64,000 nt of DNA, from the NCBI GenBank assembly GCA_044229075.1, contig JBGATS010000001.1:275-64274 (forward strand). Direction: 5' to 3'. Made by a program: the position numbers and the translations under genes. This stretch comes from Minisyncoccia bacterium (lineage in GTDB: Bacteria; Patescibacteriota; Minisyncoccia; Phycocordibacterales; UBA1006). Below the pieces are notes generated by a model that was not told where the DNA came from, searched no databases, and was given only the letters and a program-made list of their open reading frames with translations. Positions 3,485-63,868 of the stretch are shown one piece after another (position 1 is the first letter of the stretch; each line of letters starts with the position of its first letter).

Positions 3485-4441
3485 TTAGCTGTTTTTCATA
3501 GCCAACATATAGACTGCCCATCGCTTTTCACCCTCGCGAGTTAATACGCCATGATGAATGAGTTCCTGTAAATCACGTTGAATAGTTTTTTCGCTACATC
3601 CATTTATATTTTCTGATATGTCTTTTATGGTGACACGACCCTTTGATCGAATGGTTCGCATAATAGCGTCACGGCGGTCTTTTTTATCCTCTCCAGAAGT
3701 AACCGGAGATTTTTTTGAAAGTGAGAAATTTTGGACAAAGAGGTCTTGTGGTTTTTTAACAGAAGATTGTTGTGTATTATGTTGTCCTTCATGATTTGGT
3801 AATGTCTTTTGTTCGCGATTACTCATCTGATGTGTTGATGGTTTTTCCTGAATATCTTTGTCTTTTATTGATTGGTCAATTTTCTGGTGATCTGATTTTT
3901 CTGAATATGTCCGTAATGATGGCGTTTCTGAAAAGAGTTGTTCAATTGAAATTTCTGATCTGTCCGTAATTGGTGCAGTAGCCCGAAATGGATATTCCAC
4001 CTGTCCGATACAATAGGTTTCGATACGATTAGTAAAAAATTCACGAACACGATCAAGTTCCGCTGCGAGGATTTCGTGATTCATGGGCGAGATAATTCCT
4101 GCAGCCGCACACCATTGTTGGTATTGAGCGATCTGTCGCATTCCAGTAGTAATCATTCTGATATCAGACACCGTCGCCTGTTCTGGGTGATATTCTACCT
4201 CATGAATAATAGACATGGTGGTAATTGCCTGTTGTACCCATGACTGTGTGAGGGTCTCATAATCAGTTGCAACCGCGCTAATCATAATGATGGCTTCGGT
4301 AATTTTTCCCATACGGACACTCATATGTGCTAATAATTCTGGTACAGTCGTTATCACAGACTCAACGACAGAGGAAGAATGTGGGAGGTTTTTCATATCA
4401 TGTATGATACAAAAATTACCCAAAAAGTCAAGGACATACAC
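3485..4441 (-). CDS. hypothetical protein with C-terminal DeoR-like winged HTH
   Basis: C-terminal ...RVTIKDISENINGCSEKTIQRDLQELIHHGVLTREG resembles DeoR-type HTH. A Q/S/K-rich disordered linker precedes it. Start may be the internal MKNLPHSS. Confidence 0.4.
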   Translation of the reverse strand: MYVLDFLGNFCIIHDMKNLPHSSSVVESVITTVPELLAHMSVRMGKITEAIIMISAVATDYETLTQSWVQQAITTMSIIHEVEYHPEQATVSDIRMITTGMRQIAQYQQWCAAAGIISPMNHEILAAELDRVREFFTNRIETYCIGQVEYPFRATAPITDRSEISIEQLFSETPSLRTYSEKSDHQKIDQSIKDKDIQEKPSTHQMSNREQKTLPNHEGQHNTQQSSVKKPQDLFVQNFSLSKKSPVTSGEDKKDRRDAIMRTIRSKGRVTIKDISENINGCSEKTIQRDLQELIHHGVLTREGEKRWAVYMLAMKNS

Positions 4442-4609
4442 CAGTTGAAACCATTCATAACAGGTGGTAGATAGTATAAAAACGACATGGAATTATGTAT
4501 CAAGGAAACGCTTAATAATAGGTCGCTTTTATTATGGTGAACAAAGGGTTTATGCTACACTCAATCTATTATTGATTACCAGTGTAATTATTTTCCAACC
4601 TATCTTTTT

Positions 4610-6847
4610 ATGGCAAAAAAAATCCCCGAAAAAAAATCTGACCGTATAAAAAAAGAAGTCCCTGAGACATCAGTAAACCCTCTTTTTCTGAAAATCATTG
4701 GTGCTGCCATCCTCTTTATTCTTGGATTTCTGTTCATTCTCGGAATTATTGGATCGGGTGGGAGTGTTGGCGGGTTTCTCTATACAAAAATCGCACTGGG
4801 ATTGTTCGGTTATCTGGGGATTATTGTTCCTGCGTTATGTATCTATGGATCTCTCCTAATCCTCTTTCCTGAAAAATTCCGTGTCCATTGGAGCGATTGG
4901 GTTACTGGCGTCCTTTTATTATTAATCAGTACTGGGTTATTAGAACTCTTTGTTCCGTCGATGTCACTCGGGGGTGCACTGGGAGGTGTTATAGGACACA
5001 TCTGTTCACAACTCTTTTCTCGTATCGGGGGAATATTTGTCCTTTTTATTTCGGGAATTATTGCAACACTCTTCCTCCTCAGAAATTCATTATCCGTAAC
5101 CGACTGGTTTCACCGTATTGTTGATACAGAAACATACGACGATTCAGAGGATTCCTACTGGGAAGAGGAAGAAGAACCTATCTATGAGGAAGTACCTGTC
5201 CCTGAAAAACCGGAAACACCCTCTGATCACGTATTTGAAATGTCCTTGAAAGAAACTGAAAAGCTTACCAAAGAAAAACCCGCCCCAGAAAAGGATGAAA
5301 CCCCAAACCTCTCGGTAGAGCCGATTCAATTCTCTGACGATTATACATTGCCACCGTTGTCCCTCTTGTCAAAAAGTGCTGGGAAACCGTCTGTAGGCGA
5401 CATCCGTGCCCGTGGTAATGTGATTAAACAAACCCTGGCAAATTTTGGAATCGATGTAGAAATGGACGAAGTTTCTGTTGGACCAACGGTAACACGGTAT
5501 GCAATGAAACCAGCCCAAGGGGTAAAACTGGCGCGTATTGTGGCGTTGAAACAAGATCTCGCGCTCTCACTCGCAGCACATCCGTTACGTATCGAGGCTC
5601 CTATCCCTGGAAAATCATTAGTGGGAATCGAAATTCCTAATATCAACAAATCATCGGTTGGATTGGGAAGTCTATTGGATAGTGATGAATTCCAAAGCTC
5701 ATCTGAACGATTATTGGTAGCACTTGGGAAAGGGGTTACTGGAAAATCCTACTATTATAATATTGCAAAAATGCCCCATCTATTGATTGCAGGTACTACC
5801 GGATCAGGAAAATCAGTAACGGTACACAACCTGATCATGTCGCTCCTCTATCGAAACACTCCTGACGAATTACGGCTGATCATGGTTGATCCAAAACGAG
5901 TAGAACTCACCCTGTATAACGATATTCCCCACTTGCTCACCCCAGTGATCAAGGAACCAAAGAAAGCGGTCCTCGCATTAAAATGGGCAGCAAAAGAAAT
6001 GGAACGACGCTATGACCTCTTGGAACAACATCGTGTTCGCGATATCAAGTCGTACCATGAAAATGTCGTCTACCCTGCATACGCATCAGCTGATGGCGAA
6101 GATGCAGAATCGCTGCCAGAAAAAATGCCGTATATTGTTGTCATTATCGACGAGTTGGCTGATATCATGCAAGCCTATCCACGCGAATTAGAGTCGGCAA
6201 TTGTTCGTCTGGCGCAAATGTCCCGAGCAACAGGAATTCACTTGATATTGAGTACCCAGCGTCCGTCGGTAAACGTTATTACCGGACTCATCAAGGCAAA
6301 CATTCCATCGCGATTAGCACTCCAGGTTGCAAGCCAAATCGATTCGCGAACTATTCTGGATACCCCGGGTGCAGAATCATTGCTGGGACGTGGTGATATG
6401 TTGTTCCAGGGTGCCGATATGTCAAAACCAGAACGTATGCAGGCAGCAAACATTCCCGAGGATGAGATCAAAAACATTGTTGCCTTTATCAAGAAAAAGA
6501 ATCCTCGACTCTCTGATCATATTATTATGAGTGAAACCCTCGAGGATGAAAAATCAATTGTTGGTATTAATTTTGATGATGATGTTGACAATGATGATCC
6601 GTTATATGAAGATGCAAAACGAGCTGTTGTTGAAGCAGGAAAAGCTTCGACCAGTTATTTACAACGAAAGCTCAAGGTTGGTTATTCACGCGCAGCACGG
6701 TTAATCGACCTGTTAGAAGAAAATGGTGTTGTTGGACCAGCAGACGGTGCAAAACCTCGGGAAATACTCTCTGGGAATCGACCTTCCCATACCTCTGAAT
6801 CAGTGTTAGATGATGAGGGATTGTTTGAGTCAAGTGATGAAGTGTAG
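4610..6847 (+). CDS. ftsK: DNA translocase FtsK/SpoIIIE
   Basis: N-terminal TM segments, Walker A GTTGSGKSV, C-terminal gamma winged-helix (YLQRKLKVGYSRAARLIDLLEENGVV). Confidence 0.9.
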   Translation: MAKKIPEKKSDRIKKEVPETSVNPLFLKIIGAAILFILGFLFILGIIGSGGSVGGFLYTKIALGLFGYLGIIVPALCIYGSLLILFPEKFRVHWSDWVTGVLLLLISTGLLELFVPSMSLGGALGGVIGHICSQLFSRIGGIFVLFISGIIATLFLLRNSLSVTDWFHRIVDTETYDDSEDSYWEEEEEPIYEEVPVPEKPETPSDHVFEMSLKETEKLTKEKPAPEKDETPNLSVEPIQFSDDYTLPPLSLLSKSAGKPSVGDIRARGNVIKQTLANFGIDVEMDEVSVGPTVTRYAMKPAQGVKLARIVALKQDLALSLAAHPLRIEAPIPGKSLVGIEIPNINKSSVGLGSLLDSDEFQSSSERLLVALGKGVTGKSYYYNIAKMPHLLIAGTTGSGKSVTVHNLIMSLLYRNTPDELRLIMVDPKRVELTLYNDIPHLLTPVIKEPKKAVLALKWAAKEMERRYDLLEQHRVRDIKSYHENVVYPAYASADGEDAESLPEKMPYIVVIIDELADIMQAYPRELESAIVRLAQMSRATGIHLILSTQRPSVNVITGLIKANIPSRLALQVASQIDSRTILDTPGAESLLGRGDMLFQGADMSKPERMQAANIPEDEIKNIVAFIKKKNPRLSDHIIMSETLEDEKSIVGINFDDDVDNDDPLYEDAKRAVVEAGKASTSYLQRKLKVGYSRAARLIDLLEENGVVGPADGAKPREILSGNRPSHTSESVLDDEGLFESSDEV

Positions 6848-43266: not shown

Positions 43267-44901
43267 ATGGAAAGCAATATAACCGTACAAGACCTTGCTA
43301 AACTCTTTCGTTCAGATATTGAACACAATGAAGCAACTCCTCAAACACTCAAATACGTAGTATATCTCCGTAAATCTACCGAAGAAAAAGGTAAGCAAAT
43401 CCGCTCTATTCCCGATCAAAAGAAAGAGTGTCTTGAATATGCAAAACGAGAAGGAATTAATGTTAAAGATATTGTCGTAGAAACACGATCCGCAAAAGAA
43501 AGTGGTACTCGTCCCTATTTTAAAAAAATGCTAGAGGATTTAAAAACTGGTAAATACAATGCAATCCTTGCGTGGCACCCCGATAGACTAGCTCGTAATA
43601 TGAAAGACGCGGGTGAGATTATAGATTTTTTAGATAGAGACTATATCCGTGATATGAAATTTGTCAGCTTTACCTTTTCAAATGACACGAGTGGTAAACT
43701 CTTACTCGGTATTACATTTGCAATGTCTAAAGAATACTCGGACAAGCTTTCTGATAACGTAACGCGTGGTAATACTCGAAAAATGGAAGAAGGTAAAATA
43801 GTAAGTTTTATTCCCAAAGGATATTACAAAGATAGCCGTGATTTTCCAAGACCAGACGGTGTGGCTTTTGAAGTTATTTCAAACGCCTTTCGTATGCGAC
43901 TAGAGGGTGAAACTATGGAAAGTATCGCGAAGAGTTTAAATACACAAGCACTACTCGTAAATAAAACTGCTGAAAATAAACTTGGAGTATATCGTAAACA
44001 GCAAGTAATGCGAATGTTAGAAAATCCATTTTATGCAGGTGTCTATTTACACGGAGAGAAAATAGAGATACTTGGTAATGGTTATGATTTCAAACCAATA
44101 ATTACCCCCGAAGAATATTTACTCATAAACAAGAAAACCGGAGAAAAGTCAGGTAAACTCAAACGGGTACTCCGTTTCTTTAAAAAAGAAGGAGTAAAAG
44201 CAGATCTATTACGCCAGTGTGTTTTATGTGCAGAATGTGGACACACTATGTCAGCTGGTATTATGACCAAAAAGACAAACAAAGGTATAGAGAATAGATT
44301 TCACTATCGGTGCGATCAGAAAGACTGTATATCGAGAAACAAGAATGTACGACCAAGTATCATAATTAGTTACGTAGCTGATTATATAGAAACTCACTTT
44401 AGTCCAAGTAGGGCAAAATGGGAGCATTATCAAGTAGAAGCCAAGAAAGACTTCGCACTACTCAAAAGTCGTCTTGTAGGTGAACTAACAGCTCTCACAG
44501 CCCATAAAACGGACCTTACAAACGGTATGACTGATACAAGACTAGAGTTACGTCGCTTAATAGAAGAAAATGGTAATGAGGAGCTACGAAAAGACTATGA
44601 AGTAGATTATATGAAAATGAGTAATGAACTTAAAGAGGTGGATCTTTTAATAACAGAATGTAAAGAAAAAACAAAAGAAAACCTTAAACTTCTGGACCAA
44701 ACAGAGTTTCTTGAACTTATGCAAAATCTCCCTAATTTTATTAGGAATACAAGAGATATGAAAGTTCTCGACGAAATCATTAGAAAAATCTTCTTGAACT
44801 TCACCGTAAACCAAAAAGGAGTAATAAGCTCAACACTTAATACTCCTTTCGATATGGTTTTAGGACCAAAAGTCCCATATAGTGCGCGAGAGAGGACTTG
44901 A
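43267..44901 (+). CDS. large serine recombinase (resolvase-domain + recombinase + zinc-ribbon)
   Basis: The YLRKSTEE catalytic-serine context and the resolvase N-domain match large serine recombinases. The C-terminal Cys pairs (CVLCAECGH...CDQKDC) fit a zinc-ribbon. It is paralogous to the 53397-54752 gene. Confidence 0.85.
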   Translation: MESNITVQDLAKLFRSDIEHNEATPQTLKYVVYLRKSTEEKGKQIRSIPDQKKECLEYAKREGINVKDIVVETRSAKESGTRPYFKKMLEDLKTGKYNAILAWHPDRLARNMKDAGEIIDFLDRDYIRDMKFVSFTFSNDTSGKLLLGITFAMSKEYSDKLSDNVTRGNTRKMEEGKIVSFIPKGYYKDSRDFPRPDGVAFEVISNAFRMRLEGETMESIAKSLNTQALLVNKTAENKLGVYRKQQVMRMLENPFYAGVYLHGEKIEILGNGYDFKPIITPEEYLLINKKTGEKSGKLKRVLRFFKKEGVKADLLRQCVLCAECGHTMSAGIMTKKTNKGIENRFHYRCDQKDCISRNKNVRPSIIISYVADYIETHFSPSRAKWEHYQVEAKKDFALLKSRLVGELTALTAHKTDLTNGMTDTRLELRRLIEENGNEELRKDYEVDYMKMSNELKEVDLLITECKEKTKENLKLLDQTEFLELMQNLPNFIRNTRDMKVLDEIIRKIFLNFTVNQKGVISSTLNTPFDMVLGPKVPYSARERT

Positions 44902-44965
44902 ACCTCCACCCCGTTGCCAGGACTACCACCTCAAGGTAGCTTGTCTACCAGTTTCAACACTCGCG
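44882..44965 (-). tRNA. tRNA-Leu (anticodon GAG), class II long variable arm
   Basis: Cloverleaf folded by hand: GCGCGAG acceptor, anticodon loop UUGAGGU, T-arm GGAGGTTCAAGTCCTCT. Confidence 0.8.
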
Positions 44966-45017
44966 CAATGAAGCCCAGTATACTGGGATTTATTTTTTTG
45001 TAAAGAAAAACTGCATT

Positions 45018-51397: not shown

Positions 51398-51482
51398 GGA
51401 GGCGTGGATGAGTGGTTTAAATCAACAGTCTTGAAAACTGTCGACTCGAAAGGGTCCGTGAGTTCGAATCTCACCGCCTCCG
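51398..51482 (+). tRNA. tRNA-Ser (anticodon TGA), class II
   Basis: GGAGGCG acceptor, anticodon loop CTTGAAA, long variable arm, T-arm GTGAGTTCGAATCTCAC. Confidence 0.85.
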
Positions 51483-51683
51483 CTATAACATAATGAACCC
51501 AGCACGAAAGTGTTGGGTGATTTATGTTACCGGAAAGGCGTGAGATGAGAAAAGAGCGAAGCGGTTTACGAAATTCGAGGAACGAGAATTTTGTCGCGAG
51601 CGGCGGGGCCGAGCGAGTGAGATATTTTATGAGCGAAGCGAAATAAAATATCCACGAGGGTGGCCGAATCTCACCGCCTCCGC
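51483..51683 (+). repeat. ~200-bp tRNA-Ser-flanking mini-element ending in 18-bp copy of tRNA-Ser 3' end (gaatctcaccgcctccgc)
   Basis: homologous to element after tRNA-Val. Confidence 0.55.
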
Positions 51684-53396: not shown

Positions 53397-54752
53397 TTAC
53401 TTTAATAAAGTTATTTTCTTCTCTTTCAGTATCAACCTACTCCTTAAATGTCCCATAAGTTCACGCTTTTCAAGTGGTGTACCTTCTCGCAATACATACT
53501 TAGCATACTCTCTGGTATTCACATCATCCTCGTTGATGCTGTATTTTGGTGTACCTTTTGTTGCTAGTCTTTGTAGTCTATTGAATCGCTTTATTTCTTC
53601 CTCGAGCTTCATTCGCATACCTAACTCATTAATACTCACTTTATCTATGACCTTGAATAGTTCCTCGATAAGTTCCTCCTCTCGTATGTATTTGTTCTTA
53701 CAATTTCTATCTTTTGCCTTAGAGCATGAGTAGTAGATATATTTTGCATTGGTTCCATCTTTGAGCAACTTGTATTTTTCTTGAGCTGTTATACCTGACT
53801 GGCACATTCCGCATGTAAATAATTTCGTAAAGGCAAACTCTCGATTTTCTCGAACAATTTTATCTCGCTTTAGATGTTCTTGTGCTTTTTTAAACAACTC
53901 TTCATCAATTATTGGCTCATGACTTCCTTGGTACCAATTACCGCTATTTTTAGGATATTCGAATGGTCCATAATATATCGGCATATCAAATATACGATAA
54001 ACCCCTGAGAGTGTCAGGGGTTTGTTTCCTCGAGTATAAAAATTTAACTCAAATCGCAACCAGTTGTATACCTTGCGACCACTCCAATTTTCATAGGCAA
54101 CCTTTTCAAACATTTTTTTGATTATTGGGGCTCGCTCTGGATCAATGGCGAGCTGACATTTTCGATCCATAATTTTCTGGTTGAGATATCCAAGTGGTGC
54201 CATTCCAGGCCAGAGACCCATTTCTACTCGTGTACGAAGTCCGCGCTTCACATTGATACCTCGGTTATCGTTCTCAAGTTTTGCTTGCGATCCGAGAATC
54301 ATTAGGAGAAATTTCTCATTTGGATTATTTGAAAACGTCTGTCCGAAAGTTCGTATTTGGAGGAGTTTACCTGCATCCATCAGGTCTACGATTTTTCCTA
54401 GATCTCCGGCGTTTCTGGAAATACGATCTGGTGCCCATGTCAGAATCGCATTATATTTACCATCTCGAATTTCCTCTACGATTTCATTAAATACGGGTCG
54501 TTGTCCAGTTTCTTTTGCGCTGTGACTTTCTCGTTTCATAGCTACAATCTCTAGTCCTTCACGTTCGGCGAGTGCAAGCATTTCATTAATTTGAGAGTCT
54601 ATTGAAAGTACCTGTCTCTCCTCAGACTCTGTCGACTTTCTTGCATAAAGGCAATATTTCGCCTTTATTATATTTTGCTCTACTGGGGCTATTTCATAGC
54701 CATTTGGTGCATTTATTTTCATACACCTAACTAATGCCGCAGGACGTCCCAT
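53397..54752 (-). CDS. large serine recombinase (paralog of 43267-44901)
   Basis: YARKSTESEERQV...DRISRN catalytic domain, recombinase domain, C-terminal Cys cluster. Confidence 0.85.
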   Translation of the reverse strand: MGRPAALVRCMKINAPNGYEIAPVEQNIIKAKYCLYARKSTESEERQVLSIDSQINEMLALAEREGLEIVAMKRESHSAKETGQRPVFNEIVEEIRDGKYNAILTWAPDRISRNAGDLGKIVDLMDAGKLLQIRTFGQTFSNNPNEKFLLMILGSQAKLENDNRGINVKRGLRTRVEMGLWPGMAPLGYLNQKIMDRKCQLAIDPERAPIIKKMFEKVAYENWSGRKVYNWLRFELNFYTRGNKPLTLSGVYRIFDMPIYYGPFEYPKNSGNWYQGSHEPIIDEELFKKAQEHLKRDKIVRENREFAFTKLFTCGMCQSGITAQEKYKLLKDGTNAKYIYYSCSKAKDRNCKNKYIREEELIEELFKVIDKVSINELGMRMKLEEEIKRFNRLQRLATKGTPKYSINEDDVNTREYAKYVLREGTPLEKRELMGHLRSRLILKEKKITLLK

Positions 54753-54793: not shown

Positions 54794-55426
54794 TTGCAAA
54801 AGCTTGCTTTTATTTTAAAAGTGCAGTATACTCTTTACATGCAAAAGAAATTGAGTCAATTAGCAACCATAGTTTCAGGGTACACATTCCGTGGATCTAT
54901 AGAAAACGACCCAAATGGAGATATTTTTGTGCTCCAAGCTAAAAATATACAAACGAGTCGAGATATTGAGGATGTATTTGATTTTACAACAATTTCAGAT
55001 AAGTCTTTAAGAAATCCCTACTTCCTCCAATACAATGACATCTTGCTTGTTTCTAGAGGGTCAGGACTGGGTTCATTCAGATCTGCAGTTTTTATATCAA
55101 ACGAACCAAACGTGATGCCATCATCTTCAGTCCATGTAATACGAATTCATGATGTCACAGTCCTCCCTAAATATATATCGCTTTATCTCAACTCAGAAGT
55201 CGGACAAAAAGCATTATCTCAAATAGTTACAGGCGCTTCCTATATACAAAGTATCCTCGTAAAGAATCTAATAGATTTTGAAATTCTTATACCCCCGATC
55301 CATATACAAAAATCTATTATCTCACTACACGAAAATATTACAGACCAAGAACGGATACTAAAAAGAAAACAGGAACTACAAAAAAACATTATCAATGCAT
55401 CGTTTACTAACCTAATTAATAACTAA
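54794..55426 (+). CDS. hsdS: type I RM specificity subunit, half-size (single TRD)
   Basis: 210 aa with one TRD + conserved helical region; directly abuts hsdM. Confidence 0.65.
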   Translation: MQKLAFILKVQYTLYMQKKLSQLATIVSGYTFRGSIENDPNGDIFVLQAKNIQTSRDIEDVFDFTTISDKSLRNPYFLQYNDILLVSRGSGLGSFRSAVFISNEPNVMPSSSVHVIRIHDVTVLPKYISLYLNSEVGQKALSQIVTGASYIQSILVKNLIDFEILIPPIHIQKSIISLHENITDQERILKRKQELQKNIINASFTNLINN

Positions 55427-55427
55427 T

Positions 55428-56939
55428 ATGACTAATCAAAAATACACACAAGAAGACTTAAACAAAATCCTCTGGCAAGCAGCGGATTCTTCTCGCATAC
55501 AAGTTGACGCAGGTGTTTACAAAGACTACGTACTTGCAATGCTTTTCTTTAAATATCTTAGCGACCTTTCAAAAAAGAAACGAAATGAATACAAAGAACG
55601 TTTTGGTAATGATGAAAAACGTACTGAAGAAAAAATGAAGCTTGATCGCTTCTATCTTCCTCCAAAGTCTTCTTTTGATTATATCTATTCTATCCTCGAA
55701 CAAGACAATCTTGGTGAAGAAATAAACAAAGCACTTCATCGTATTGAAGATGCCAACAAGGAAAAACTTGATGGTGTATTTTCTGTAGACTTCAATTCTG
55801 AATCAACTTTAGGAAAACTTGCAGAGCGAAACAAAATGCTCCGTCATCTAGTACAAGACTTTGCAAAAATGGATCTCTCGGATGTAAATGACGATATTAT
55901 TGGTAATTCATATATGTACATGATTGAGCGCTTTGGAGCCGATGCAGGCAAAAAAGCAGGAGAATTTTTCACTGTGCGTAACGTTGCTCATCTTGTAGCA
56001 AGACTAGCTGAACCAAAAGTAGGTGCACGTATTTGTGATCCATGTTGTGGTTCTGGAGGACTACTACTGCTTGCAGGTGAAGAAGTAGAAAAACAAGGTT
56101 CAAAAAACTATGCTCTTTACGGTCAAGAATCTACAGGATCAACCTACCAACTCGCTCGTATGAACATGTTCCTCCATGGAAAAGACTCTGCACGACTTGA
56201 ATGGGGCGACACATTAAATAATCCTCTTCTTGTAGAAAATGATCACTTAATGAAGTTCGACACCATTGTTGCCAATCCTCCGTTTTCTCTTAAAAAATGG
56301 GGTGCTGAACATGCAGAGGCTGATAAGTATAAACGCTTCTTGCGTGGTGTTCCACCAAAAGACAAAGGTGACTTTGCTTTTATTACTCATATGGTAGAGA
56401 CACTTAAACCAAAGACTGGTCGCATGGCAGTAGTTGTTCCTCATGGTGTTCTCTTCCGTGGAGGAGCAGAAGGAAAAATCCGTGAGCAACTTCTTAAAGA
56501 GAATATCGTTGAAGCTGTTATCGGACTTCCTGCAGGGTTGTTCCAAACAACTGGTATTCCTGTAGCAATTCTTATACTTGATCGCTCACGAGAAAAAGGA
56601 GGAGAAAATGAAAACAAAAAAGATGTATTCTTTATCGAAGCATCAAAAGAGTTCAAATCTAACAAAGCGCAAAATATTCTTACTGATGAAAATATCGAGA
56701 AGATTTATTCTACTTACAAAACTCGTAAGGATGTAGAAAAATTTGCTCGTAAAGTAAGCCTTAAAGAAATTGAGGAAAATGATTTCAATCTCAACATCAC
56801 TCGTTATGTAGATACATTCACAGAAGAAGCTCCTGTAGATATCAAAGCAAATTTGAAAGAGCTTGCTGAGCTTGAACCACAGCTAGAGAAGCTTGAGAAA
56901 CAAATGGTCGTATATCTAAAGGAGCTAGGAATTAAATAA
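55428..56939 (+). CDS. hsdM: type I RM N6-adenine DNA methyltransferase subunit
   Basis: NPPF motif (IVANPPFSLKKW), AdoMet motif I DPCCGSGG. Confidence 0.9.
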   Translation: MTNQKYTQEDLNKILWQAADSSRIQVDAGVYKDYVLAMLFFKYLSDLSKKKRNEYKERFGNDEKRTEEKMKLDRFYLPPKSSFDYIYSILEQDNLGEEINKALHRIEDANKEKLDGVFSVDFNSESTLGKLAERNKMLRHLVQDFAKMDLSDVNDDIIGNSYMYMIERFGADAGKKAGEFFTVRNVAHLVARLAEPKVGARICDPCCGSGGLLLLAGEEVEKQGSKNYALYGQESTGSTYQLARMNMFLHGKDSARLEWGDTLNNPLLVENDHLMKFDTIVANPPFSLKKWGAEHAEADKYKRFLRGVPPKDKGDFAFITHMVETLKPKTGRMAVVVPHGVLFRGGAEGKIREQLLKENIVEAVIGLPAGLFQTTGIPVAILILDRSREKGGENENKKDVFFIEASKEFKSNKAQNILTDENIEKIYSTYKTRKDVEKFARKVSLKEIEENDFNLNITRYVDTFTEEAPVDIKANLKELAELEPQLEKLEKQMVVYLKELGIK

Positions 56940-56943
56940 ATAT

Positions 56944-58071
56944 ATGAAAAACTTTGATTATAAAATTGTAGAACAAAAGTACCCTGACAGTTTAAGCCAG
57001 AATGGTTTTGATTTGATATTTAAAAATCCAGATCATGGGGCTTTAAATTTTTCGGAAATCGAAGCAGAATTTGTTGAATATTATGATATGTTTTTTGAAT
57101 TAGAAAAACTTGATTACAAAAATTCTCTATATCAGGAAGAAATTAATAACGTAGATAGAATAAGAAACGAACTAATAAATATATTTAACCAAATACAACA
57201 ATTTTCTATATCTGTACCAAACCCAACTCATGTTAAACAAAATATAATTAATCAGTTTAGAGATCAGATAAATAGAAATTCAAAACCTATAGAAGATTTC
57301 ATTTTAAAAATTAAATCAAAGAAATTCTTTGATTCTTCTGAAGGATCTAAAGCATTTGAAGAGATTCAAAAAGAAAAAGATTTAATTATTATCGAAAAAA
57401 ATAAGATTGAAAAAATTTCAGAGGAAATTGAAAGATATAGAGATGAATTAAAAGAGAAAATTAAAAACACTCAATTTGAAAAAATAGTTCAAACAGAGAG
57501 AACTAGCGGCGAACTAGAGTCAGCATCATTCTTTGAAGAGCAATCCTTAATTCATAAATTAAACGCTGATCAAATTGAAAATGAATTAGGGTGGCTACAA
57601 AAAAGAACAAAATTTGAAAAATATATTTACTGGCTTTTAGGGATTAGTGCGGGATTATTTTTGCTTAGTTTTGTTTTCTTAGTTATCTGGGGTGGCGTAA
57701 ATGAAGATGTACAAATTATTGATGCGATTAAGGTATGGGAAGCGTTCTGGGATATAAGAGCTGGACTTTTTATTCTTTCTTTGCTTTCTATTTTTTACAC
57801 GGGTTTATATTTTGCTACTAAAAATTATTCAAGAGAAAAAGACTTTGAGTATCAAAATAAGAATAAATCAAATATAGTAAAAAGTGTTGGATTATTTTCA
57901 TCTGGATCATCTGATCAAATTAGGCAGAATATTTATGAGATTGCCGCACGAACAATCTTTTCTGCCTACTCATCGTTTAATGAAGTAGATAAAAATCAAA
58001 ATTCTCAAATAAATCTTTCAGCTTCAACCGCTGACATAACTAAAAAGATTACATCAGCACATGAAAACTAA
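56944..58071 (+). CDS. RM-embedded hypothetical protein: ~220-aa coiled-coil N-domain + two C-terminal TM helices
   Basis: It is translationally coupled, 4 nt after the hsdM stop and overlapping the hsdS start by 11 nt. TM helices at YIYWLLGISAGLFLLSFVFLVIWGG and AGLFILSLLSIFYTGLYFA. Confidence 0.5.
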   Translation: MKNFDYKIVEQKYPDSLSQNGFDLIFKNPDHGALNFSEIEAEFVEYYDMFFELEKLDYKNSLYQEEINNVDRIRNELINIFNQIQQFSISVPNPTHVKQNIINQFRDQINRNSKPIEDFILKIKSKKFFDSSEGSKAFEEIQKEKDLIIIEKNKIEKISEEIERYRDELKEKIKNTQFEKIVQTERTSGELESASFFEEQSLIHKLNADQIENELGWLQKRTKFEKYIYWLLGISAGLFLLSFVFLVIWGGVNEDVQIIDAIKVWEAFWDIRAGLFILSLLSIFYTGLYFATKNYSREKDFEYQNKNKSNIVKSVGLFSSGSSDQIRQNIYEIAARTIFSAYSSFNEVDKNQNSQINLSASTADITKKITSAHEN

Positions 58072-59242
58072 TCAACCACAAAAAAATATTTCTTCAGATT
58101 GGCAACAAGTAAAGCTTGGTGCGGTTTGTGATATTTCAGCTGGCGGTACACCATCTACTGACATTTTAGAATATTGGGAAAATGGAAGTATTCCTTGGGC
58201 AAATTCTGCAGAGATAAATAAAAGAGATATTTATAAAACTAATAATTTTATTACACAAAGTGGTTTAGATAATTCATCTGCAAAAATTGTCCCAGAAAAT
58301 AGTGTTTTAATTGCACTTGCAGGACAGGGTTCCACTCGTGGTAAGGTTGCAGTTAATAAAATACCTTTATCAACAAATCAGTCTCTTGCTTTTTTTGTGC
58401 CTAAAAAAGATGTTGATTACCGATTTTTAAGATCAGTTCTTGAAATGAGATATCAAGAATTAAGATCTATTTCTACAGGTGATGGCGGTCGCGGTGGTTT
58501 AAATTTACAAATATTAAAATCACTAAAGATAAAACTCCCACCTCTCCCTGAACAAAACCGGATAGTTTCAGTCCTTGAAACTTGGGATAAATCTATTGAG
58601 AAACTCGCACGGAAAATTGAAGTAAAAAAACAAATCAAGAAAGCTTTGATGGATCAATATGTCTACAAAAGGAAAGATTCAACTGAGTATTTTATTGATA
58701 GTTTATTCGAACTCGGAAGGGGGCGTGTTATCGCTAGGGGTGAGATAGAAAATAATCCCGGTATATATCCTGTTTATTCTTCTCAGACATCAAATAGTGG
58801 AATATTCGGGAACATTTCTACATATGATTTTGAGGGTGAATATCTTACTTGGACAACTGACGGTGCTAATGCTGGGAGGGTTTTTTACAGAACTGGAAAG
58901 TTTAATTGTACGAATGTCTGTGGTACAGCAAAACTGAAAAAAGATTTAAAGGTTAATTTATATTTTGTCTATTCATATTTGAACTACATAACAAAGAATT
59001 ATGTTTCTTATGTTGGTAACCCCAAACTGATGAACGGTGTTTTTGGGAAAATTCAAATCAAACTACCAGATATCGAAGAGCAGGATAAAATTAGTAAAAT
59101 TTTAATTGTCTCAGACAAAGAAATAACCGAACTCGAAAAGAAATTATCCATTATCAGAGAACAGAAACGTTATCTCCTCAACAATTTAATCACTGGCACA
59201 ATTCGTACACCAGATACATTATCAACCAATAAACTCATATAA
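58061..59242 (+). CDS. hsdS: type I RM specificity subunit (two TRDs)
   Basis: 393 aa, duplicated TRD + conserved coiled-coil spacer architecture. Confidence 0.85.
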   Translation: MKTNQPQKNISSDWQQVKLGAVCDISAGGTPSTDILEYWENGSIPWANSAEINKRDIYKTNNFITQSGLDNSSAKIVPENSVLIALAGQGSTRGKVAVNKIPLSTNQSLAFFVPKKDVDYRFLRSVLEMRYQELRSISTGDGGRGGLNLQILKSLKIKLPPLPEQNRIVSVLETWDKSIEKLARKIEVKKQIKKALMDQYVYKRKDSTEYFIDSLFELGRGRVIARGEIENNPGIYPVYSSQTSNSGIFGNISTYDFEGEYLTWTTDGANAGRVFYRTGKFNCTNVCGTAKLKKDLKVNLYFVYSYLNYITKNYVSYVGNPKLMNGVFGKIQIKLPDIEEQDKISKILIVSDKEITELEKKLSIIREQKRYLLNNLITGTIRTPDTLSTNKLI

Positions 59243-59246
59243 ATAT

Positions 59247-62200
59247 ATGTTAGAAAAAGTAAATTTTGATGAAGCACGACAGTCACAGCTCCCATTCATA
59301 GAGCTTCTCTTGAACATGGGCTATACATATATTCCTGCAGAGGAAGCACTACGACAACGCGGTGGTGATACTTCTAATTTCATTCTCGCTGACATAGCGA
59401 CTGAAAAGTTGATGGAAATAAATGGTTATGAGGTTGGTGGGACTGAATACAAATTCAGTGAGAAAGACGTACGAGATGCTATCGATGAATTAGAGCATAT
59501 CCAATATGAAGGACTCATTGATACTGCACAAAAGATCTACAACACCATCATGCCAACAAGCGGCGGTAAGACTGTTAAGGTAAATCATGGCGGTAAAAAA
59601 GTATCAAAGAATTTCAAATTCATTGATTTTGAAAACCCAAAAAATAATTCATTCCACGTAACTGCTGAGTTCGTCGCTAGTGGTAAGCAAAATATTCGTC
59701 CAGATATTGTATGTTTTGTGAATGGTATTCCTTTCGTAGTTATTGAAAACAAGAAGTCAGGTGTTGCTGTTGTAGAAGCACTTAACCAGATGAACCGCAA
59801 TCAAGGTCCTGAGTATTGTCCAAAACTATATACCTACACACAGCTTCTTGTTGGTACAAATGGTAAAGATTTACAATACGGCACAACTGGTACACCAAAC
59901 AAGTTCTATGCTGTGTGGAAAGAGAAAGGCACAGACGAAGACGTATTGAATGGAGAAATATCTAAACTCATACAAAAAGAAATAGATGCTACTACTTACT
60001 CGGAAATTTTACAGGATCTCAACGGATACACAGATGGTCACAAACAAAGAACAGACCGCCTTCCTACTGAACAAGACCGAGGAGTGTTTTCACTTTTTGA
60101 ACCTGTGAGACTTCTTGATCTTACAAAGAACTATATTCTCTTTGATGCAGGAGTAAAGAAACTTTCTCGCTATCAACAATACTTTGCTATCCATAAAATG
60201 CTCAAGCGTGTTGAAGAGGAAGAAACTACCGAACAAGGTATCACTCGCCGAAAGGGTGGGCTTGTTTGGCATACGCAAGGATCTGGTAAATCACTAACGA
60301 TGGTGATGTTTGTTAAGGCTCTCATTGAAGATCCTCATATCCTTAACCCTCGTGTGATTATTGTTACTGACCGTCGAGATTTGGATAAACAAATCAAAGA
60401 CACATTCAAGAACTGTAACCTAAAAAAGGAAGTTATTCAGGCTACAAGTGGTCAAAACCTCATTGATCTTATTAAAGAGAAAAATCTAGCAGTTATTACT
60501 ACTCTGGTACAAAAGTTTGAATCAGCTGCAAAAAAGAGTGCTGGGTTTGTTGATACTGATGAAAATATTTTCGTACTTATCGACGAAGCTCACCGAAGTC
60601 AGAATGGTGTCGCCAACTTTGAAATGGGTCGCATTATTCCGAATGCATCTTATATCGGATTCACAGGTACTCCACTCATGAAGGATGAGAAAGAAAGTTG
60701 GAGAAAGTTTGGAGGATATATCGATAAATATACTATTGATGACGCTTTAGCCGACAACATAATCCTGCCTCTTATCTATGAAGGTCGCTATGTTGATCTT
60801 ATTCAAAATGCTGAGCAAATCGATCGTCATGTTGAGCGTATCACTGAAGGTTTGAACGAAAAACAAAAAAAAGAATTACAACGTTATATTGGAAGTAAGA
60901 TCATTAAAGACAATCCTCAGCGTATTGTTGAGATTGCGTATGATATTGAAAAACACTTCATGTCTAACTTCCAAGACACAGGGCTTAAGGCACAAATTGT
61001 TGCCCCATCAAAATACTCTGCTATTTTATTCCAGAAGTTTTTTGAAACACGAGGGAAAATAAGAACTGCCGTCATTATCTCTGATGAGCATGAGGATGGT
61101 GATGAAGAAAACCTTCATAAAAAAGAAGTGGTTGCTTACCTAGAAGGTGTCCGAAAAAACCATAGTAGCGTCGATAAGTATGAGAAAGATGTTGTTGAAA
61201 GTTTCAAGTATAACGATGATGGAATCGAAGTCATCATTGTTTGTGACAAACTACTCACGGGTTTTGATGCACCTAGAAATACCGTCCTATATCTTGCTAA
61301 AGACTTACGCGATCATAATCTTTTGCAGGCTATCGCTCGTGTAAACCGTTTGTTTGAGAATAAGAAAGAAAAACCAAAGACTGCTGGCTACATAATGGAC
61401 TACTCAGAGAATGCTAAGAATATCGATACTGCGATGAAGCTCTTTGGTAACTATGATGAGAATGATGTAAAAGGCACTCTTATTGATGTTGCAGAAAAGA
61501 TTCAAGAACTTGAGCAAAGTTATTCTCTTGTTCACGATATTTTTAAGGAAGTCAAAGGATCATCTGATGATGAGGTATATTTACAGTTCCTTTCTGATCA
61601 ACCAAAGCGAGAAACGTTCTACAAAACCCTCAATGCTTTCATTAAGAATCTAAGTGAATGTTTTGTATTGCAGGACTTTGTTCATGAGTTCAAACATCTT
61701 GATTTGTACAAGCGTGAACTCAAGAAATTTGCTGAACTTCGTAAGGCAGCTAGTTTGCAATATGCAGACCGTGTTGATCTATTAGAATACAAACAATCAC
61801 TTGTTAATATTCTCGATAAATATGTTGATGCTCGTGGAGTTGAACTTCTTACAAAACAAGTAAACATTACCGACCGAAAACTTTTTGAGGAAGCTGTCGA
61901 GAATCTCGGATCTGATAAATCAAAAGCTGAAGCTATCGCTGCACAAACTCAAAAAACTATCACTGAAAAACTTGATACTGATCCTGAGTTTTACGAAAAG
62001 TTTTCTAAAAAGATTTCTGAGATTCTTGAAAAAATGAGGCTCGGTAAGCTTGCCGATGTTGAAGCATTAAAACAAATGAAGTTAATTCGAGATGATGTTG
62101 TAAATAAGAAAGATGAAAGCCTTCCAGGAAAAATTGACTCACAAAAAGGATCGGATGTCTTTTATCGTAACTTACGAACACAATTCGATAGTCTAAAACT

Positions 62201-62438
62201 TAACGAAGAAGTATATATATCTATCATTCTTGATATCTTTACTATCATAAAAAATGAAGCAATTGTGGATTGGTATAAGAATATGGATGTTAAGCGTAAG
62301 ATGCGAAATAGTATAGACGATTATCTTTATGATGTTGTTAAAGGTGAAAAAGGTCTCGAAATAGATAATGATCAGATAAAAAGTATTATTGATAGTGTGA
62401 TGGTATTAGCAGAGAATAACTTTGATTTATTTATCTAA
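59247..62438 (+). CDS. hsdR: type I RM restriction endonuclease/helicase subunit
   Basis: helicase motifs TQGSGKSLTM, DEAH box LIDEAHRSQ, N-terminal nuclease domain. Confidence 0.9.
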   Translation: MLEKVNFDEARQSQLPFIELLLNMGYTYIPAEEALRQRGGDTSNFILADIATEKLMEINGYEVGGTEYKFSEKDVRDAIDELEHIQYEGLIDTAQKIYNTIMPTSGGKTVKVNHGGKKVSKNFKFIDFENPKNNSFHVTAEFVASGKQNIRPDIVCFVNGIPFVVIENKKSGVAVVEALNQMNRNQGPEYCPKLYTYTQLLVGTNGKDLQYGTTGTPNKFYAVWKEKGTDEDVLNGEISKLIQKEIDATTYSEILQDLNGYTDGHKQRTDRLPTEQDRGVFSLFEPVRLLDLTKNYILFDAGVKKLSRYQQYFAIHKMLKRVEEEETTEQGITRRKGGLVWHTQGSGKSLTMVMFVKALIEDPHILNPRVIIVTDRRDLDKQIKDTFKNCNLKKEVIQATSGQNLIDLIKEKNLAVITTLVQKFESAAKKSAGFVDTDENIFVLIDEAHRSQNGVANFEMGRIIPNASYIGFTGTPLMKDEKESWRKFGGYIDKYTIDDALADNIILPLIYEGRYVDLIQNAEQIDRHVERITEGLNEKQKKELQRYIGSKIIKDNPQRIVEIAYDIEKHFMSNFQDTGLKAQIVAPSKYSAILFQKFFETRGKIRTAVIISDEHEDGDEENLHKKEVVAYLEGVRKNHSSVDKYEKDVVESFKYNDDGIEVIIVCDKLLTGFDAPRNTVLYLAKDLRDHNLLQAIARVNRLFENKKEKPKTAGYIMDYSENAKNIDTAMKLFGNYDENDVKGTLIDVAEKIQELEQSYSLVHDIFKEVKGSSDDEVYLQFLSDQPKRETFYKTLNAFIKNLSECFVLQDFVHEFKHLDLYKRELKKFAELRKAASLQYADRVDLLEYKQSLVNILDKYVDARGVELLTKQVNITDRKLFEEAVENLGSDKSKAEAIAAQTQKTITEKLDTDPEFYEKFSKKISEILEKMRLGKLADVEALKQMKLIRDDVVNKKDESLPGKIDSQKGSDVFYRNLRTQFDSLKLNEEVYISIILDIFTIIKNEAIVDWYKNMDVKRKMRNSIDDYLYDVVKGEKGLEIDNDQIKSIIDSVMVLAENNFDLFI

Positions 62439-62443
62439 ATTAT

Positions 62444-63151
62444 ATGAAAGAATTCATATTTGGAACATTTGTATATGAATATCAACTTATAAAACAAGAT
62501 CGTAAAACACTGTCTCTCACTGTCACGCCAGACTTACGTATTGTTCTTAAGTGTCCAGTACAAACTGATAATGAAAGAATAGAAACTTTTTTACAGAAAA
62601 AGTGGTTCTGGTTGGAAAAACAACTTTCGTTCTTTAAAAAATATCAACGGAAGATTTATGAGAAAGAATATATTTCAGGAGAAGGATATTTATATCTTGG
62701 TAGGCAATACAAACTAATTGTACGACGCGGGAAAGAAGATCTTGTTTCATTAACAAGAGGACTTTTAACGATTTACACCACAAAAGAGGTCTCAAATAGT
62801 CACCATAATAAAAAACTTATAGACTCCTGGTTCGAAGCAAAAACAGAAAGTGTTTTCCAGGATAGATTTAGGGAAATGTTAGGTAAGTTCGAATACAAAA
62901 ATACACCTATTCTTGCTATTCGAGAAATGAAAAAGCGTTGGGGTAGTTTTCTTAATAAGGATAAAATATTACTTAATCCAAAACTTATTCATACACCAAA
63001 AGAATGCATTGATTATGTTATTGTTCATGAACTATGTCACCTAAAGTATAAAAATCATAACTCCAATTTTTGGAAACTTTTAGAAGAGAAACACCCTAGG
63101 TGGGAAAAGGTTAAAGATAAACTTGAAACTATTGGTGCCAGCACCTGTTAA
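62444..63151 (+). CDS. YgjP/DUF45-like metal-dependent hydrolase (HExxH)
   Basis: VIVHELCHLKYKNH zinc-binding motif. This family commonly neighbours type I hsdR genes (association recalled from memory, not searched). Confidence 0.7.
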   Translation: MKEFIFGTFVYEYQLIKQDRKTLSLTVTPDLRIVLKCPVQTDNERIETFLQKKWFWLEKQLSFFKKYQRKIYEKEYISGEGYLYLGRQYKLIVRRGKEDLVSLTRGLLTIYTTKEVSNSHHNKKLIDSWFEAKTESVFQDRFREMLGKFEYKNTPILAIREMKKRWGSFLNKDKILLNPKLIHTPKECIDYVIVHELCHLKYKNHNSNFWKLLEEKHPRWEKVKDKLETIGASTC

Positions 63152-63448: not shown

Positions 63449-63838
63449 ATGAATAAATATTTAACCTATATTATAGGTATTTCCTGTATAGTTATTACAG
63501 GAGCAGTAGCATATTATTTCTTTTCATATTTGCCTAGTAAAAATGCATTACTCGGACAGAAAGAATGTCGAAATATGGCACTCAATAAATTTGAAAAAGA
63601 TCAGTCTGGCACTTCAGAACCTGAGTTTGTTTTTGATGAGAAAGGAAGATGTTTGTACAAGTTGGTAGAAGTTCATTCTTCTGAAGGCATATCAGTTATA
63701 ATGTTTTACATAATTGATTTGTACACTAACCAACAAGTTGCTGGATATACCGAAACTTACAAAGATGGAAACAAAACAACATTAGGCAATCAGTCTATTT
63801 TTGATTCTATAGATAAGAAATATTTTAAAGAGCAATAA
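63449..63838 (+). CDS. hypothetical membrane-anchored small protein
   Basis: N-terminal TM; followed by hairpin terminator aaccacgctttgtgcgtggtt. Confidence 0.4.
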   Translation: MNKYLTYIIGISCIVITGAVAYYFFSYLPSKNALLGQKECRNMALNKFEKDQSGTSEPEFVFDEKGRCLYKLVEVHSSEGISVIMFYIIDLYTNQQVAGYTETYKDGNKTTLGNQSIFDSIDKKYFKEQ

Positions 63839-63868
63839 AACCACGCTTTGTGCGTGGTTTTATTGCTA
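63839..63868 (+). terminator. rho-independent terminator
   Basis: aaccacgc-tttgt-gcgtggtt + T-run. Confidence 0.55.

Follow-up and report, generated by a model that had tools for sequence, protein, structure and literature searches.

An unnamed family of predicted two-helix membrane proteins encoded within bacterial restriction-modification operons

Results

The restriction-modification operon and its additional gene

We analysed a 64,000-nucleotide (nt) stretch of DNA from a Minisyncoccia bacterium (contig JBGATS010000001.1), hereafter called the window, which carries a type I restriction-modification (RM) operon with an additional gene, here called X, between the methyltransferase gene hsdM and the specificity gene hsdS. 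Features of the window lie on the forward strand unless stated otherwise. The operon begins with a half-size hsdS (54839–55426), which encodes one Methylase_S domain and one target recognition domain (TRD). It continues with hsdM (55428–56939), for a type I N6-adenine methyltransferase (HsdM_N, PF12161, E = 2.1e-21; N6_Mtase, PF02384, E = 3.5e-101; PADLOC MTase_I, E = 2.7e-125), and with X (56944–58071), whose 375 amino acid (aa) product was placed by profile search and a structural model in an unnamed helical family with two transmembrane (TM) segments. Next come a full-length hsdS with two TRDs (58061–59242; two Methylase_S matches, E = 8.2e-55) and hsdR, for the restriction and translocase subunit (59247–62438; HSDR_N, E = 1.2e-35; SWI2_SNF2, E = 1.4e-76; T1R_D3 and a C-terminal domain; PADLOC REase_I, E = 9.9e-150). 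A gene for a YgjP/DUF45-like metallopeptidase (62444–63151; PF01863, E = 1.1e-53) stands last. The type I RM operon is complete, with HsdM, a two-TRD HsdS and HsdR all recognized.

The genes are closely packed. From the list of open reading frames (ORFs) and the junction sequence, spacers were 1 nt between the half-size hsdS and hsdM, 4 nt between hsdM and X, 4 nt between hsdS and hsdR, and 5 nt between hsdR and the YgjP-like gene. X overlaps the full-length hsdS by 11 nt, with the hsdS ATG at 58061 and the X stop codon at 58069–58071. An initial annotation of the window had proposed this gene order, with spacers of 1–5 nt and the 11-nt overlap, and the ORFs, junction sequence, Pfam and PADLOC all agreed with it. 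It had also described X as a 375-aa, AT-rich gene, which held as well: the GC content was 27.6% in X, lower than in the operon (34.4%) or the window (37.8%). Because the junctions are tight, X is probably translationally coupled to hsdS and made together with the RM core.

Architecture of the X protein

An AlphaFold2 model of X, computed from a 103-sequence alignment, was all-helical with a pLDDT score of 90.5. Residues 1–215 (56944–57588) are predicted to form a cytoplasmic domain with helices at residues 37–55, 64–85, 94–130 and 132–209, the last of which is K/E-rich and spans 78 residues. TM1 (aa 227–250; 57622–57693) has a Kyte-Doolittle peak of 2.48, a K/R-rich N-terminal flank and a small-residue GxxxG pattern, and TM2 (aa 273–292; 57760–57819), also located by hydropathy, is well conserved in the family and contains conserved S/T/G/Y residues. 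Approximately 80 residues come after TM2. They include the membrane-proximal segment KNY...N.[HN][RK].N...T...F...F (residues 293–340; 57820–57963), which had the highest information content in the alignment; in the N-terminal domain the conserved residues are G32, F36, F87 and F197. The K/R-rich flanks of the hairpin, placed on the cytoplasmic side, indicate an N-in/C-in topology. Scans with PADLOC, Pfam and NCBIfam revealed no P-loop, nuclease or GTPase domain. Thus the two TM helices of the initial annotation stand; its placement of them at the C-terminus does not, given the residues that follow, and the N-terminal domain is a predicted helical bundle rather than a plain coiled coil.

X belongs to a large family

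X had no match in Pfam, NCBIfam, PADLOC or PHROGs at E ≤ 0.01, and above that threshold only noise was seen. A word-indexed search of 5.8 billion proteins returned 10 relatives. An exhaustive hidden Markov model (HMM) search built from the alignment of those relatives returned 704 representatives with E-values up to 1e-3, 108 of which reached E ≤ 1e-10, so that the family comprises about 700 clusters at 50% identity. When the word-indexed search was repeated with a profile of 103 sequences, just one more usable protein was obtained. Most full-length matches were 320–375 aa long and aligned end to end, and 145 full-length proteins formed a single BLAST-connected cluster. Publicly named members are all labelled ‘hypothetical protein’ or ‘uncharacterized protein’.

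The 103 full-length members share a common layout: a helical N-terminal domain of ~200–215 aa, two hydrophobic segments in a tight hairpin, and a tail of ~80 aa. The second hydrophobic segment fell under the hydropathy threshold in some members, and the external loop of the hairpin was short or absent in most. Conservation was strongest in TM2 and the membrane-proximal tail. As judged from these sequences, the family is defined by the N-terminal helical domain, the two-TM hairpin and the KNY...N.[HN][RK].N...T...F tail, and X fits this definition. Six members (P0078, P0080, P0103, P0115, P0152 and P0140, where labels beginning with L or P denote loci or proteins of the X family) form a subfamily with a conserved N-terminal extension of ~130 aa bearing the motifs LSQSLLIW and GFIDLL; the extension had no sequence relative in the PDB.

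Ten core members matched no Pfam family, and a sequence-profile search of the PDB with the family gave coiled-coil noise only. Structural fold searches of X returned generic helical matches, with a weak and non-significant lean towards ClyA-type alpha-pore-forming toxins, the family of ClyA, AhlB, SmhB and YaxAB. Homologs were found neither in viral contigs or phage genomes nor, by tblastn of X, in plasmids. When 185,579 species genomes were scanned with patterns from close relatives, no close relative of X was detected. For distant relatives, we searched the same genomes with a hand-made degenerate DNA pattern that covered just the tail motif, and nine of its 15 matches encode true family members. 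Among the hosts are Patescibacteria, Saccharibacteria, Gammaproteobacteria, WOR-1 and Eisenbacteria, and homologs occur in cultured Vibrio and Photobacterium (WP_272788435.1, from Vibrio, and WP_102425633.1). We concluded from the sequence comparisons that X is a real, conserved membrane-protein gene of a large family that has no name in the libraries searched.

Genomic context of X homologs

We compared 25 distinct X-family loci, including the window. Nine of them had been found by the motif within X only, and thus their neighbours were unselected. In 18 of the 25, X lay inside an RM operon and shared its strand with an adjoining methyltransferase (M), specificity (S) or restriction (R) gene; its usual position was directly after the methyltransferase gene or overlapping hsdS. 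Type I loci with the order M-X-S-R were the window, L003, L008, L019, L026, L030 and L042, whereas partial RM loci at contig edges (M-X, X-S or X-hsdR) were L027, L028, L035, L038, L014, L016, L017, L039 and L024. In the type III locus P0007, X lies between Mod and Res (N6_N4_Mtase-X-ResIII/RE_endonuc). In L006, an Eco57I-like methyltransferase gene (652 aa) is followed by X, then by an ORF of 100 aa and an S-like gene, and the 12 kb there contain no hsdR. Among the motif-found loci, L026, L027, L028, L030, L035 and L038 each have an hsdM homolog directly upstream of X, and L024 has X-hsdR at a contig edge. L039 is an X-S pair, as are L014, L016 and L017; in these last three, as in L008 and L042, the 11-nt overlap of the window recurs.

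Altogether, 24 of the 25 contexts were related to RM, defence or toxins, and X homologs sat within RM operons of several phyla down to ~17–25% identity. A random gene would lie beside hsdM in roughly one case in thousands by our rough estimate, and X is linked to RM operons far above chance. The initial annotation had called for a check of gene-neighbourhood conservation, which was strongly positive, and had named as refuting outcomes that homologs occur mostly outside RM or defence contexts or match a housekeeping membrane protein family; neither was found.

X homologs also occur without any RM gene nearby, in L001, L011, L013, L036 and L041. The neighbours are a Fic gene in L001, GmrSD and Thoeris genes in L011, and a Panacea-type antitoxin-like gene in L013; the motif-found locus L036 has no defence context, its neighbours being only GNAT and beta-lactamase genes. 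L041 is an integron cassette array on Vibrio tubiashii pFP31 (NZ_CP117031.1, 2600–15300) in which Hhe, AbiH, HEPN-associated and GIY-YIG genes accompany a full-length X member (HMM E = 6e-80), the genes being on the same strand and divided by ~130-nt attC/VCR-like repeats. The X homolog and the adjoining GIY-YIG gene had no detected copy of the repeat between them and may form one two-gene cassette. Because most members that lie outside RM operons have defence or toxin genes as neighbours, X can probably act alone, as single-gene abortive-infection (Abi) proteins do.

X is exchanged between operons

Pairwise identities of X did not simply follow the divergence of the RM subunits. L008 and L019 were 74% identical in M and 74% in R but only 32% in X. 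The window and L008 shared 39% in M, 29% in R and 49% in X; the window and L006 shared 26% in M and 45% in X; and the window and L003 shared 74% in M, 57% in R and 49% in X. By this measure X is a fast-evolving, exchangeable cassette that still holds its slot. The partner methyltransferases are very different, including an N6_N4_Mtase and the 652-aa Eco57I-like enzyme.

Both the M-S slot and the S-R gap are variable in X-bearing operons. L042 has the order MerR-M-RhuM-(93 aa)-X-S-(197 aa)-R, with RhuM between hsdM and X at 1847–2875. L008 has the order MerR-M-X-S-SduA_C-R-YgjP, with Shedu SduA_C between hsdS and hsdR at 4512–5663, and L030 carries a reverse transcriptase gene (RVT_1) between hsdS and hsdR at 1069–2388. 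L003 reads half-S-M-X-S-(76 aa)-R-YgjP, and L019 reads recombinase/helix-turn-helix (HTH)-M-X-(155 aa)-S-...-R-YgjP; the YgjP gene thus follows hsdR in L003, L008 and L019 as in the window. A 226-aa protein of unknown function in L019 (12835–13933) has a 48%-identical homolog beside hsdS in L028 (3–752). The insertion pattern matches the published ‘guilt by embedding’ picture (PMC11411939; bioRxiv 10.1101/2024.01.29.577857), in which TgvAB sits in an RM-operon gap in V. cholerae (PMC11411939) and seven of nine candidates chosen by embedding were validated (bioRxiv 10.1101/2024.01.29.577857). An intact hsdR was present in the window, L003, L008, L019, L026, L030 and L042, and among loci with enough flanking sequence only L006 was without it.

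Recombinases, tRNA genes and mobility

A large serine recombinase gene (53397–54752, reverse strand; Resolvase, Recombinase and Zn_ribbon_recom domains in Pfam) is divergent from the RM operon. A tRNA-Ser gene (tga; 51398–51483), predicted by ARAGORN, lies 1.9 kb from it and is a possible integration landmark of the island; flanking similarity was found. The paralogous large serine recombinase mentioned in the initial annotation exists: its 544-aa product is encoded at 43267–44901 (phmmer E = 1.9e-35 to the first), and the 3′ end of its gene overlaps a tRNA-Leu gene (44882–44966, reverse strand).

The recombinase beside the operon was 73% identical to that of L019, which occupies the same position flanking a similar RM operon with X and has a tRNA-Ser gene 113 nt from its 3′ end. 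L008 opens with a related recombinase fragment. L021, which has a type III RM system, a recombinase and a type IV secretion system (T4SS) pilin, shows the recombinase abutting tRNA-Tyr. These observations support the earlier idea of a mobile island, and that the X-bearing RM operon is part of a tRNA-targeting, serine-recombinase-borne island is well supported. The abutment of recombinase and tRNA gene recurs (tRNA-Leu in the window, tRNA-Ser in L019, tRNA-Tyr in L021), which suggests that these genomes harbour a family of integrative elements directed at tRNA genes.

The half-size specificity gene and other neighbours

The half-size hsdS has a formal alternative start at TTG 54794, from which the initial annotation had counted 210 aa. 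The protein was 35% identical to the 189-aa half-size HsdS at the same position in L003 (4311–4880). Because this homolog aligns from the Met at 54839, the most likely start as read from the alignment is ATG 54839, giving 195 aa. This start lies 86 nt from that of the recombinase gene, and not ~40; the divergent orientation stands as first described. A half-size, one-TRD HsdS 5′ of hsdM was thus observed in two related operons (the window and L003) that also encode a full HsdS; a homodimer of the half-size protein, together with the full subunit, may give the RM system two specificities. We considered phase-variable shuffling of hsdS by the recombinase (a shufflon) and rejected it, since no repeats joining the half-size and full hsdS genes were found in the window.

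Beyond the YgjP-like gene lies a 129-aa ORF (63449–63838) whose product has a hydrophobic helix at its N-terminus and matched no family, and 3′ of the ORF a perfect 16-nt inverted repeat (63831–63867) that is probably a terminator.

Two loci contain LexA-like modules. In L006, LexA_DNA_bind and Peptidase_S24 domains are encoded (4728–5366) just upstream of the methyltransferase gene adjoining X. In the motif-found locus L034, such a module near X is fused to an N6 methyltransferase in one 619-aa protein (3614–5473). Both hint at SOS-linked control.

A GIY-YIG gene follows X or X-hsdR in three unrelated loci (L011, 7158–7415; L041, 9519–10175; L024, 4122–4958). The three GIY-YIG proteins are dissimilar to each other, and we rejected a specific pairing with X; the recurrence is probably coincidence. 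Small ORFs directly after X in L006 (8871–9173), L019 (11153–11620) and L038 (90–500) each have predicted N-terminal or internal hydrophobic helices, and no homology was found among the three.

Discussion

Comparison with known systems

An embedded accessory defence gene in an RM operon is a known paradigm, and the X protein family is new within it. The family, its architecture, and its placement between M and S or between Mod and Res were absent from the libraries and literature searched, including the embedded candidates in PADLOC. We consider it quite probable that X is some form of defence accessory that is linked to RM and located in the membrane.

For a membrane effector tied to a type I methyltransferase core, the closest mechanistic precedent is RonA of the Ronin system (E. 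coli ECOR55). This 61-aa TM toxin is linked to hsdS/hsdM; HsdMS is proposed to neutralise it, and the anti-restriction proteins Ocr or ArdA to free it so that growth is arrested (bioRxiv 10.1101/2023.04.06.535777). Like X, RonA is a membrane protein tightly encoded with type I hsdM and hsdS. Its architecture sets it apart: RonA has one TM helix in 61 aa, whereas X has 375 aa, two TM helices, a large helical domain and a conserved tail. Ronin is also usually without hsdR, whereas X mostly occurs in RM operons that are complete, a type III locus among them. The other precedent is PrrC, embedded in EcoprrI (PMC12707154). PrrC and RloC resemble X in being encoded within type I RM operons, and they are RM ‘guardians’ that fire when restriction is blocked. 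In contrast, they are soluble ABC-ATPase tRNases, while X is a predicted membrane protein with no P-loop, no nuclease domain and no PADLOC match to them.

The initial annotation had proposed a comparison with SLATT/DUF4231 and other two-TM effector families, and X belongs to none of these in Pfam, NCBIfam, PADLOC or PHROGs. SLATT proteins are likewise two-TM hairpin proteins in defence contexts and are presumed to perturb membranes; unlike X, they are linked to nucleotide-signalling systems and not to RM. No SLATT/DUF4231 match was obtained in Pfam for X at E ≤ 10 or for ten core members, and the lone SLATT_4 match in the family (P0034, E = 0.0044) fell in the soluble N-terminal region, outside the TM region. 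AbiZ of Lactococcus, thought to raise membrane permeability (PMC13064643), is similar to X in size, in being a single-gene defence and in having no recognisable domain, but it is not RM-embedded; the PADLOC AbiZ model did not match X and matched two of the 103 members at ~1e-3.

DUF6161 (PF19658), flagged elsewhere as a predicted defence family without known homology (bioRxiv 10.1101/2025.01.08.631966), gave weak matches in five of 103 members (best E = 4.6e-5). It had no match in X or ten core members even at E ≤ 1, so that any relation is distant at best, and we rejected this lead as an identity for X. The bacterial dynamin-like LeoBC matched 11 of 103 members weakly (best 1.1e-6); one match viewed in detail placed helix and TM on profile positions 353–535 (E = 0.037). 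X is without a GTPase domain, the lead was weak and absent from X and the core members, and LeoBC was rejected too. Matches across the family to the SMC-like PADLOC models JetC, LmuB and DndD were rejected as coiled-coil noise.

The Kiwa supercomplex is embedded in the membrane and detects changes that phages induce there (PMC11785009). Both Kiwa (KwaA/KwaB) and Zorya (ZorAB) resemble the arrangement around X in pairing a membrane component that has cytoplasmic helical parts with a cytosolic DNA-targeting partner (PMC11785009), and they differ from it in TM number and partners. Neither KwaA nor ZorA gave a PADLOC match to X, and a few family members gave coiled-coil-type noise.

What X may do

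We tentatively favour the reading that X acts on the membrane as a back-up or abortive-infection effector. This reading draws on the RonA precedent, on the occurrence of X alone in defence islands, and on its evolution in the manner of a defence cassette. The X gene would have been inserted as an accessory cassette after the methyltransferase gene and would be expressed along with the RM core, the protein lying silent in the inner membrane at rest. Its trigger would be either the blocking of the RM complex by a phage anti-restriction protein or the sensing of infection by its own cytoplasmic domain. Once fired, X would oligomerise and permeabilise or depolarise the membrane, and the damage would halt phage production. 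RonA follows such a logic, as does PrrC with another type of effector.

Several observations weigh against such an effector. Fold and profile searches gave no significant match of X to a known pore former or effector. A complete hsdR is retained in most X loci with enough sequence, unlike the mostly hsdR-less Ronin. The exchange of X alleles between unrelated M backbones is a poor fit to a tightly co-adapted guard complex. Because standalone cassette copies exist (L041, L036), an unregulated toxin is unlikely, and any toxicity of X must be self-controlled. The genomic contexts also suit roles in which the cell is not killed, for instance tethering, sensing or blocking injection.

In one such role X would anchor the RM enzyme to the membrane or serve it as a sensor: the cytoplasmic helical domain of X would bind the M2S complex or the nuclease subunit and hold or activate the RM complex at the inner membrane, where DNA of phages or plasmids enters, without killing the cell. 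EcoKI is reported by Holubova et al. to associate with the membrane. An anchor would be in keeping with the conserved slot beside M and overlapping S in type I loci, with the position between Mod and Res in the type III locus, with the intact hsdR of most loci, and with the predicted 78-residue cytoplasmic helix running towards TM1. The membrane-embedded sensing supercomplex of Kiwa offers a parallel (PMC11785009), and the logic would also be like that of Zorya. We regard this role as a serious rival to the effector, if a somewhat less likely one, since X also occurs in the five loci with no RM gene nearby, and since its alleles are exchanged between methyltransferases as different as N6_N4_Mtase and the Eco57I-like enzyme; because of this movement, a specific docking interface is not obvious.

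The same exchange of alleles would accord with X as an independent membrane defence, for example by superinfection exclusion or an injection block, that rides in the M-S slot for co-expression and co-transfer and has no functional link to RM. The M-S and S-R gaps are insertion hot spots for unrelated defence genes: they hold RhuM and a 93-aa ORF in L042, SduA_C in L008 and a reverse transcriptase in L030, and V. cholerae offers a further example in TgvAB (PMC11411939). In addition, standalone copies of X lie in defence islands and in the integron array. Even so, X keeps its slot at 17–25% identity across Patescibacteria, Saccharibacteria, Gammaproteobacteria and WOR-1, with a conserved overlap of 4 or 11 nt with hsdS. 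Conservation of slot and overlap suggests more than hitch-hiking, and we judge an unlinked defence to be improbable. Least probable by far is that X is a non-defence membrane protein serving housekeeping or the maintenance of a mobile element, for instance as an addiction or stabilisation factor of the island. The GNAT and beta-lactamase surroundings of L036, and the serine recombinases and tRNA genes adjoining several loci, would accord with this; opposed to it are the 24 of 25 contexts related to RM, defence or toxins, the failure of X to match any housekeeping family in Pfam, NCBIfam or PADLOC, and the patchiness of the family, which is rare in reference genomes (no close relative in 185,579 species and nine loci by motif).

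Going beyond both the favoured effector reading and the anchor, the X family could constitute a ‘fourth subunit’ class of restriction enzymes, although we think this rather unlikely. Embedded in the membrane as sensors or anchors, its members would couple RM complexes of types I and III, and possibly further nucleases, to the place and time at which foreign DNA enters. They would either localise restriction at that place or, if restriction is blocked, switch the cell to abortive infection through the membrane.

RM systems are the commonest prokaryotic defence, and few of the accessory genes embedded in them are understood so far, namely PrrC, RonA and TgvAB. The X family is large and nameless in the libraries searched, and it is wired into the junction of methyltransferase and specificity genes across distant phyla, many of its hosts being uncultured lineages of the candidate phyla radiation (CPR). 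The homologs in cultured Vibrio and Photobacterium make the role of X directly testable. As a membrane effector, X would make the family a class of RM guardian that is new. As an anchor or sensor, it would change our view of how RM enzymes meet incoming DNA, and a ‘fourth subunit’ would add to RM systems a layer of spatial control or guarding not described for them before.

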